This document shows, piece after piece, positions 30,413-31,510 of a DNA stretch of 64,000 nucleotides. The notes under the pieces were generated by a model that saw nothing but the letters and a program-made list of their open reading frames with translations, made no database searches and had not been told where the DNA came from. The translations under genes were made by a program, and so were the position numbers. This DNA is from an uncultured archaeon (lineage in GTDB: Archaea > Asgardarchaeota > Thorarchaeia > Thorarchaeales > Thorarchaeaceae): positions 1 through 64,000 of the forward strand of contig CAZLEV010000005.1 of NCBI GenBank assembly GCA_964558645.1, written 5' to 3'. Positions within the stretch are counted from its first letter, which is position 1; every line of letters starts with the position of its first letter.

Positions 30413-30790
30413 ATGAGCGAGAGTGATGTTGATATCATACTTGAGTTTGAAGAGGGGCTTAAGCTCGATGTAGTACTCGACAGGGTTCTTGCCCCCCTGA
30501 TTATCGAGGAGATGAAGGCAAAGATGCCTATTCAAGGAAAGGCAGCCTTCATCAAGGGCGAGATGAAAATCACTCTGGGAATCGGGAAAGGTAATGTAAA
30601 GGCGACAAAGGAAGTCAAGAGGGGACAGGTAGCATACATGCCCCTCGGGGACTCGCTTTGCATTTATGTGAAGGACATGAAGACCTTCAGCCCCGTCAAC
30701 GTGCTTGGCTATGTAAAACCGCCCGATGATCTGTTAGATAATCTGGAAAGCGTTCGTCGGGGAAGTCAAGTCATAATCAAAATGCAATAG
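30413..30790 (+). CDS. Cyclophilin-like fold protein (DUF369/TM1367-like)
   Basis: 'APLIIE...MP', 'VKRGQVAYMPLGDSLCIY', 'SPVNVLG'. Confidence 0.8.
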   Translation: MSESDVDIILEFEEGLKLDVVLDRVLAPLIIEEMKAKMPIQGKAAFIKGEMKITLGIGKGNVKATKEVKRGQVAYMPLGDSLCIYVKDMKTFSPVNVLGYVKPPDDLLDNLESVRRGSQVIIKMQ

Positions 30791-31342
30791 TCACATCTTC
30801 TGTATGCTTCTCAGTATCTCACGACTGTCATCGCATTCCGTTTCAGTCGGATCCACAGTCATGCCCGGTTGCTCAGCCTCAATCAGTACCTCCATCCCTG
30901 AATCCACCACTCTCTTGAAACCAGATCCCGAATGGCATCGTACACGGAGCTGAGTGGTATTGAACTGTGTCTTGTCAGTCTTCTCGACAGGCACCCCATC
31001 ATGCTTGAAGCTGCTACGTATGTTTCTGAGTTGCTGTTTCTGTTCAGCCACCTGAACCTGGAGTTCTCGCTTCGCGGTAAGAACCTCATCGAGTTGCTCT
31101 CGAACGATATCATATTCACTTCGTGGAATGTAATCTTCGAAACGATCAATCCACGTGATAGTTGTGCCATCGAACTTGCGTGTCGTTGAGACGGTTCCCA
31201 ATGCTCTTAGCACAGCTACAACATCATAGATTCTTCTCTTGGGGACATCAAGAAACTCAGCGACCTCGTCGCTACGAATACCATCATCCCCACTCTCCTT
31301 CAGTATCCTAACTGCCTCCCGGGCGAGAGTCACAAGTTTCAC
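30791..31342 (-). CDS. E2F/DP-like winged-helix transcription factor with coiled coil
   Basis: 'EVAEFLDVPKRRIYDVVAVLRALG...ITWID', then a heptad coil and a DP-like 'DDSREILRSI' tail. Confidence 0.8.
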   Translation of the reverse strand: MKLVTLAREAVRILKESGDDGIRSDEVAEFLDVPKRRIYDVVAVLRALGTVSTTRKFDGTTITWIDRFEDYIPRSEYDIVREQLDEVLTAKRELQVQVAEQKQQLRNIRSSFKHDGVPVEKTDKTQFNTTQLRVRCHSGSGFKRVVDSGMEVLIEAEQPGMTVDPTETECDDSREILRSIQKM

Positions 31343-31436
31343 GGTTGCACCCCAGAATCCGCGCCTTTCTCAGACTAAGTCGAGCCGCGTCTAATCAGTA
31401 TCGCATATCTGAAACTTAAACCTTTGTGTTATATCC

Positions 31437-31510
31437 CGATTTTTCGAAGAGCTGCCCGCTAAATCCATTTGACGATTTATCGTAACATATTTCGATTATT
31501 CGATTTATTG
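31437..31510. promoter_or_regulatory. Four CGA-W4-T(C/T)G imperfect palindromes in a divergent promoter region
   Basis: CGATTTTTCG 31437, CGATTTATCG 31473, CGATTATTCG 31493, CGATTTATTG 31501. Confidence 0.5.

Follow-up and report, generated by a model that had tools for sequence, protein, structure and literature searches.

The first 64,000 nucleotides (nt) of contig CAZLEV010000005.1 (assembly GCA_964558645.1, an uncultured archaeon of the family Thorarchaeaceae), hereafter the window, carry a minus-strand gene for a 183-residue protein whose N-terminal part is related to the DNA-binding domains (DBD) of E2F and DP. E2F/DP drives the G1/S transcription programme of eukaryotes, hence an archaeal forerunner of this factor bears on the wiring of the eukaryotic cell cycle. 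The open reading frame (ORF) proposed in a preliminary description of the locus was confirmed, as its translation contains all the peptides quoted there, including PKRRIYDVVAVLRALGTVS, ITWID and DDSREILRSI. Furthermore, its GTG start codon (31340-31342) agrees with the starts of its orthologues, whose proteins begin with MKLV. A scan of the host genome (3.63 Mb, 92.8% complete) revealed a single PF02319 locus with a score of 41.5 bits, confirming that the gene is single-copy, as expected from the single factor first proposed. The features of the locus are listed in Table 1.

Table 1. Coordinates of the E2F/DP-like gene, its encoded domains, its upstream signals and its convergent neighbour in the window.
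Feature	Position	Strand	Basis or remark
E2F/DP-like gene, 183 residues, GTG start, stop codon 30791-30793	30791..31342	minus	ORF listing; 165 homologues; single PF02319 match of the genome
Winged-helix DBD, residues 1-66, three helices and two-strand wing	31145..31342	minus	Pfam, AlphaFold, structural alignment with E2F4
RRIYD motif, R36-D40, recognition helix; followed by VVAVL (E2F: ITNVL)	31223..31237	minus	Aligned to E2F RRIYD
Coiled-coil helix, residues 74-115, about 4.5 heptads	30998..31123	minus	AlphaFold, heptad count; collinear with the E2F coil
Four-strand beta module, residues 127-165, G-x-EV-x-IE motif	30848..30964	minus	Conserved in all Asgard forms
C-terminal helix, residues 172-183 (DDSREILRSIQKM)	30794..30829	minus	Thorarchaeota-like subset only
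Shine-Dalgarno-like element GGGGTG, 5 nt 5' of GTG	31348..31353	minus	Sequence reading; kept in thorarchaeal orthologues
TATA-like TTTAAG preceded by conserved ATAACACAAAGG; likely promoter	31415..31420	minus	Inferred from conservation
Proximal TCGAAAAATCG element, 26 nt upstream of the TATA-like box	31437..31447	minus	Recurs with the same spacing in thorarchaeal actin promoters
Two further CG-W6-CG copies (CGATAAATCG, CGAATAATCG; 31473-31482 and 31493-31502)	31473..31503	minus
Cyclophilin-like gene (PF04126), convergent; its stop abuts the E2F-like stop	30413..30790	plus	Pairing kept in other Asgard loci

Our results identify the winged helix at the N-terminus as a genuine E2F_TDP domain bearing both the RRxYD motif and the tryptophan of the wing, an assignment that is already published. 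Pfam PF02319 (E2F_TDP) matched residues 3-65 with an E-value of 3.7e-10 and 39.8 bits, above its gathering score of 25.7 bits, and the match extended over profile positions 5-64 of 65. The AlphaFold model contains helices at residues 3-17, 24-31 and 35-47 and strands at residues 51-56 and 59-64. Thirty-one columns were invariant among 24 thorarchaeal sequences, including P34, K35, R36, R37, Y39, D40, A43, V44, L45 and W64, and this conservation of the sequence clearly indicates that the protein is under constraint. Among solved structures, the top sequence matches were E2F8 (4yo2_A, 2.7e-7) and E2F4 (2.3e-3), both aligned over the RRxYD helix, and the DBD chain of DP2 was not matched even at E ≤ 10. 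Structural alignment with E2F4 (1cf7_A) gave a root-mean-square deviation of 1.4 over 62 residues with 32% identity, the highest identity of the list, although many winged helix-turn-helix (wHTH) proteins score as well as E2F4 in structure, the winged-helix fold being generic.

Given such a generic fold, we considered that the protein could be an ordinary archaeal regulator of the TrmB/MarR type that resembles E2F by convergence. Whole-model fold searches returned only generic wHTH proteins (MarR, ArsR, TrmBL2 and Z-alpha), TrmB (PF01978) gave a weak match (0.0019, 18.4 bits), and eukaryotic E2Fs themselves give sub-threshold TrmB matches. However, the TrmB match of the protein lies below the gathering score of that family (25.6 bits) and 21 bits below the E2F_TDP match, neither RRxYD nor the wing tryptophan varies, and Pfam found no TrmB C-terminal domain in the protein. 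The preliminary description had named, among the grounds to abandon its reading, a better match to TrmB or other archaeal wHTH families without any E2F_TDP hit; here, E2F_TDP outscored TrmB. Furthermore, a family profile built from the 24 thorarchaeal sequences gave 74 matches against 1.84 billion representative proteins, and those examined were short proteins of the Asgard type followed by eukaryotic E2F-domain proteins, with no TrmB/MarR-type protein among them. All 20 long matches that were scanned carry E2F_TDP and the short ones that were read carry RRxYD, while 10 of 10 long matches tested also match E2F_CC-MB, seven of them above the Pfam cut-off. Some members are named 'E2F family transcription factor' by NCBI. 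We therefore consider convergence from a TrmB/MarR-type regulator to be very improbable.

E2F/DP homologues have been described across most Asgard groups (Eme et al. 2023, Nature 618:992, Suppl. 4.1.5, PMC10307638) and a review also states that Asgard E2F homologues have been reported (PMC7617429), which answers a question that the preliminary description could not settle. The gene is thus a member of a known, already published family, and the finding as first written adds no new kind of thing. According to Eme et al. 2023 (PMC10307638), the base-contacting residues are conserved and similar DNA motifs are predicted, while homology to E2F/DP ends at the DBD (Suppl. 4.1.5). Their table of eukaryotic signature proteins, which uses the labels PF02319 and arCOG02749, includes the same-genus orthologue P0003 (82% identical) as E2F/DP PF02319 from Thorarchaeia TEKIR_12S; the exact 183-residue sequence was not found in the part of this table that was examined. 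No mention of a marked box in archaeal E2Fs was found in the literature searched.

A homology search at E ≤ 1e-3 returned 165 proteins, nearly all 180-200 residues long and pre-annotated with PF02319, the nearest being from Candidatus Thorarchaeota. PF02319 was detected in 124 of 301 sampled Asgard genomes with a patchy distribution by family, as it occurred in 68 of 76 genomes of the family to which the window belongs and 17 of 19 genomes of family f12, and was not found in families f9 (0/68), f5 (0/28) and f22 (0/21). Named members belong to the Thor, Hel, Loki, Odin, Baldr, Jord/Freya, Heimdall, Kari and Ran lineages. This spread over many families and named lineages contradicts the idea that the gene is a eukaryotic contaminant of the metagenome bin or was recently acquired from a eukaryote. 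We found no point in support of such an origin, to which we give virtually no credence, and three more speak against it: archaeal synteny is kept, with cyclophilin-like and von Willebrand factor A (vWA) genes nearby, archaeal Shine-Dalgarno and TATA-like signals are present at the gene, and the contig was recovered over at least 20 kb in an independent sediment run.

Variants of the family were also observed. In P0125 (257 residues), the E2F-like domain is preceded by a hydrophobic extension of the N-terminus, about 90 residues long; this protein may be either a membrane-anchored variant or the product of a mis-called start. P0172 and P0180 of Odinarchaeia belong to a second, divergent E2F_TDP subfamily (152 residues, KKRRVYDVLDVL) with a different C-terminal region, which accompanies the standard copy in some genomes (family f21, two matches per genome).

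The winged helix is followed by a coil at the position that it occupies in E2Fs, as supported by three lines of evidence. The AlphaFold model contains one uninterrupted helix with a predicted local distance difference test (pLDDT) score of 94-95 at residues 81-100. In the best heptad register of 24 thorarchaeal orthologues, 66% of the a/d positions are occupied by LIVMF versus 11% elsewhere. Finally, hhalign aligned 23 coil-bearing archaeal proteins with 15 eukaryotic E2Fs, whose sequences ran from the DBD through the marked box, at a probability of 99.2% (E 3.7e-19) over 109 columns without any gap across the DBD and the coil. These results agree with the heptad coil noticed previously. When the DBD was removed, the coil still aligned at 73%, a figure that by itself is not diagnostic; the wing-to-coil spacing conserved with E2Fs is more telling.

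The beta-rich segment of the preliminary description was also recovered. Strands were assigned to residues 132-136, 142-147, 152-156 and 161-165, before the terminal helix assigned to residues 172-181, and the tail modelled alone with the family alignment adopted four strands and a helix with a mean pLDDT of 86. An alignment of 34 Asgard members revealed a common core made of the winged helix and a four-strand module of about 40 residues, the latter being the most widely conserved part of the family outside the DBD, kept from Heimdall to Thor. The terminal helix occurs in Thorarchaeota-like members only, as the others end directly after the fourth strand; the comparison of DDSREILRSI with DDIEVLKRM of DP therefore rests on a non-conserved element and was not retained. 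The protein ends 18 residues past the last strand and, as had been anticipated, has no Rb-binding tail; neither RB_A nor DP nor E2F_CC-MB was matched in the genome. Longer or fused forms of the family were searched for and none was found, which is weak evidence.

How far the homology to E2F/DP extends beyond the winged helix is the point on which our data bear on the published account. The DBD-only view (Eme et al. 2023, Suppl. 4.1.5) regards both the coil and the beta module as specific to Asgard archaea and as unrelated to the coiled-coil/marked-box (CC-MB) pairing domain of E2Fs, which would result from a later eukaryotic fusion. Several results favour this view. PF16421 (E2F_CC-MB) did not match the protein at E ≤ 10, the 34 tail segments or the genome at E ≤ 1, PF08781 (DP) matched neither the protein nor the 34 tails and gave nothing above noise in the genome, and Pfam found nothing shared by the 34 tails. 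Only PF02319 thus passed among the profiles suggested in the preliminary description. Furthermore, hhalign gave a probability of 0.05% for the beta module against E2F CC-MB. Without the DBD, the module aligned with nothing and the coil reached a level that any coiled coil might reach. A PDB profile search with the tail returned chance rows, the best being a KH segment of archaeal CPSF (E 0.38), and a shape search of the ESM Atlas with the tail model returned its own family only, followed by unrelated beta pieces at a template modelling (TM) score of about 0.4. In addition, about one third of the Asgard members (116-137 residues; Heimdall, Kari and others) have no coil.

Conversely, other observations are at odds with a homology confined to the DBD, starting with the E2F-like distance between wing and coil and the gap-free joint alignment. 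Language-model features of residues 118-183 alone ranked two E2F_CC-MB clusters first and second, with scores of 0.78 and 0.76 that fall below the trust level of 0.9, and the same two clusters led for the tail of a Helarchaeota member only 22% identical. For the Atlas model of this Helarchaeota member, the closest structure outside its own family came from a eukaryotic cluster that contains DP (TM 0.49). Foldseek ranked the E2F1 CC-MB chain 2aze_B second of 350,542 PDB chains (E=2, TMq 0.35, 41 columns), and a forced full-length hhalign alignment (mact 0.05) continued collinearly, strand for strand, into the marked box, with no posterior support. These sub-threshold pointers are suggestive of a beta module homologous to the E2F/DP marked box, which is possible and unproven. 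With a coil in the E2F position and weak marked-box signals in the beta module, the published statement that a dimerisation domain is lacking looks too strong, even if we give the DBD-only view close to an even chance of being right. Overall, the winged helix, the coil, the missing Rb tail and the single copy of the preliminary description stood, whereas its DP-like helix did not and its marked box stayed below threshold.

More tentatively, the Asgard protein could possess the whole E2F core, that is, the winged helix, the coil and a marked-box-type module, and act as a homodimer on TTTSGCGCSAAA sites. If so, the E2F-DP heterodimer would have arisen by duplication of a complete ancestor and not by later fusion of a pairing domain, and the archaeal factor would have at least one deeply conserved and directly testable target gene.

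Typical E2Fs (E2F1-6) are composed of E2F_TDP and E2F_CC-MB (PF02319, PF16421). Like them, the Asgard protein carries RRxYD and the tryptophan of the wing in its winged helix, and a coiled coil follows directly. Unlike them, it has no PF16421 match, no N-terminal extension and no transactivation or pocket-protein tail, its recognition helix reads VVAVL instead of ITNVL, it totals 183 residues, and no DP partner was found in the 92.8% complete genome with its one PF02319 locus. With DP1 and DP2 (PF02319 and PF08781) it shares the E2F_TDP-type winged helix, and the beta module of the Helarchaeota member nears a DP cluster, but PF08781 does not match and the DP-like terminal helix is not family-wide. 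The atypical E2F7 and E2F8 have two tandem winged helices and no pairing domain, and do not need DP. E2F8 is the best solved-structure sequence match of the Asgard protein, which does not need DP either but differs by its single DBD and by its coil and beta module. TrmB (PF01978) also combines a wHTH with a long dimerising helix, consistent with the weak Pfam match and the presence of TrmBL2 in the Foldseek rows; unlike TrmB, the Asgard protein scores below the TrmB cut-off and has no C-terminal sugar-binding domain. TrmB proteins are not known to carry the RRxYD motif. As for the Asgard homologues of Eme et al. 2023, they belong to the same family, with the same pan-Asgard spread and conserved base-contact motif; in contrast to the account given there, the E2F alignment obtained here runs on through the heptad coil and the tail yields weak pointers to a marked box.

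Taken together, these data indicate that the protein is probably a small sequence-specific DNA-binding transcription factor of the already described Asgard E2F/DP family. It would form a homodimer through its coil and beta module, in which each RRxYD helix may read a half-site of a palindrome with a GC core. As an operator, the best candidate would be TTT[GC]GCGC[GC]AAA, a 12-mer found upstream of the P0234 gene in most thorarchaeotal genera. As there is no pocket-protein tail, its regulation would have to differ from the eukaryotic Rb/CDK circuit.

We observed 61 copies of the palindrome TTTSGCGCSAAA in 41 thorarchaeal genomes versus 11 copies of a reversed control. In 26 of 35 thorarchaeal genomes, representing 13 of 16 genera, the P0234 orthologue is preceded by TTTSGCGCSAAA at a distance of 170-260 nt, and an exact or near copy was present at 29 of 30 P0234 loci. 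At these loci the palindrome (TTTCGCGCCAAA or TTTGGCGCCAAA) stands out as a conserved island, as its flanks show no conservation and the neighbours on the left vary from one genome to another. In the genome under study, the palindrome (G000 C24:34360-34371) precedes the P0234 gene (C24:34624-35382). P0234 is a protein of about 250 residues with a lysine-rich N-terminus and no Pfam match, and Rfam found nothing in the gap upstream of its gene. In several genera, the P0234 gene adjoins Alg14/Alg13-like genes. The conserved palindrome upstream of P0234 is the most useful new lead, since this protein-DNA pair can be tested in vitro and needs no cultured organism. Our additions to the known family are thus a point of architecture and a testable candidate target.

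As an alternative, the protein could bind nucleic acid without being promoter-specific, either as a component of the nucleoid or of chromatin or by recognising unusual DNA or RNA in the manner of Z-alpha. However, the Z-alpha matches reached 10-19% identity only, on a generic fold, the RRxYD motif that reads the bases does not vary, and non-coding DNA contains a conserved palindrome that matches it. Such a function is accordingly improbable.

Several observations weigh against an E2F/DP-family homodimer acting on these palindromes. The short Asgard forms indicate that the family can do without the coil. No E2F-type site was found in the promoter of the E2F-like gene itself. Some copies of the palindrome are coding, as in rpoB (F-G-A-K) and in a GINS-like gene (W-R codons). 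In families without the E2F-like factor, the palindrome still exceeds its control 1.7- to 1.8-fold, and about half of the genome-wide excess has another cause. Furthermore, only homology would tie the protein to the palindrome. TTTSSCGC was not enriched in the window (6 copies versus 5 expected) or in intergenic DNA (16% versus 10-14% for controls).

Two candidate lines of evidence were set aside. The phylum-wide ratios of palindrome to control (with the factor, Thorarchaeota 100:22 and f12 19:7; without it, f9 about 30:18 and f22 11:6) are confounded and were not relied on. The copy of TTTCGCGCCAAA located 121 nt upstream of MCM (G000 C16:46965-46976) would have linked E2F to MCM, but it falls within the 3'-terminal part of the GINS-like gene, at the TGG-CGC codons of a conserved Trp-Arg pair, and this link was withdrawn because of the coding constraint. 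MCM frames were 1214-2403 residues long in six genomes (G027, G299, G155, G116, G167 and G069) versus about 700 residues elsewhere, with the match breaking near residues 344-423, which suggests inteins or other insertions.

The upstream region of the E2F-like gene contains three copies of a different element, CG-W6-CG, with the consensus TCGAAAAATCGA. In thorarchaeal orthologues, the proximal copy precedes the conserved TATA-like box by 26-29 nt, and another copy is found about 36 nt upstream of the proximal one. The exact sequence TCGRAAAATCG occurs six times in the host genome, always in intergenic DNA, and one of these copies is located 71 nt upstream of an actin homologue (G000 C4:182063-182074). 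Likewise, TCGAAAAATCGA is found 27-28 nt upstream of the actin TATA-like box in 9 of 30 thorarchaeal genomes from four genera, and in only 0.9% of the upstream regions of the host genome. A GGCGCG sequence in the leader of the E2F-like gene is kept within the genus only. In six genomes (G069, G167, G164, G182, G299 and G075), the actin match extends over 1167 nt instead of 1137 and contains one in-frame stop (TGA/TAA), which suggests that 30 nt were inserted into a gene that is otherwise 93-97% identical.

The start codon of the thorarchaeal orthologues is mostly GTG or TTG rather than ATG, and is always preceded by the GGGGTG element. Rfam gave no match in the E2F-like locus and NCBIfam none for the 183-residue protein. 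Two contigs of 151 nt, 95-99% alike and lying inside the ORF, were found in one salt-lake metatranscriptome of a close relative and provide a weak hint of expression. Tail-to-tail pairing of the cyclophilin-like and E2F-like genes, with gaps of 0-130 nt, was also observed in another thorarchaeal genome, in Helarchaeota, in Jordarchaeia and at one further Asgard locus, and is absent beside a short Heimdall form of the E2F-like gene. A vWA (VWA_4) gene also lies near the E2F-like gene in two lineages.
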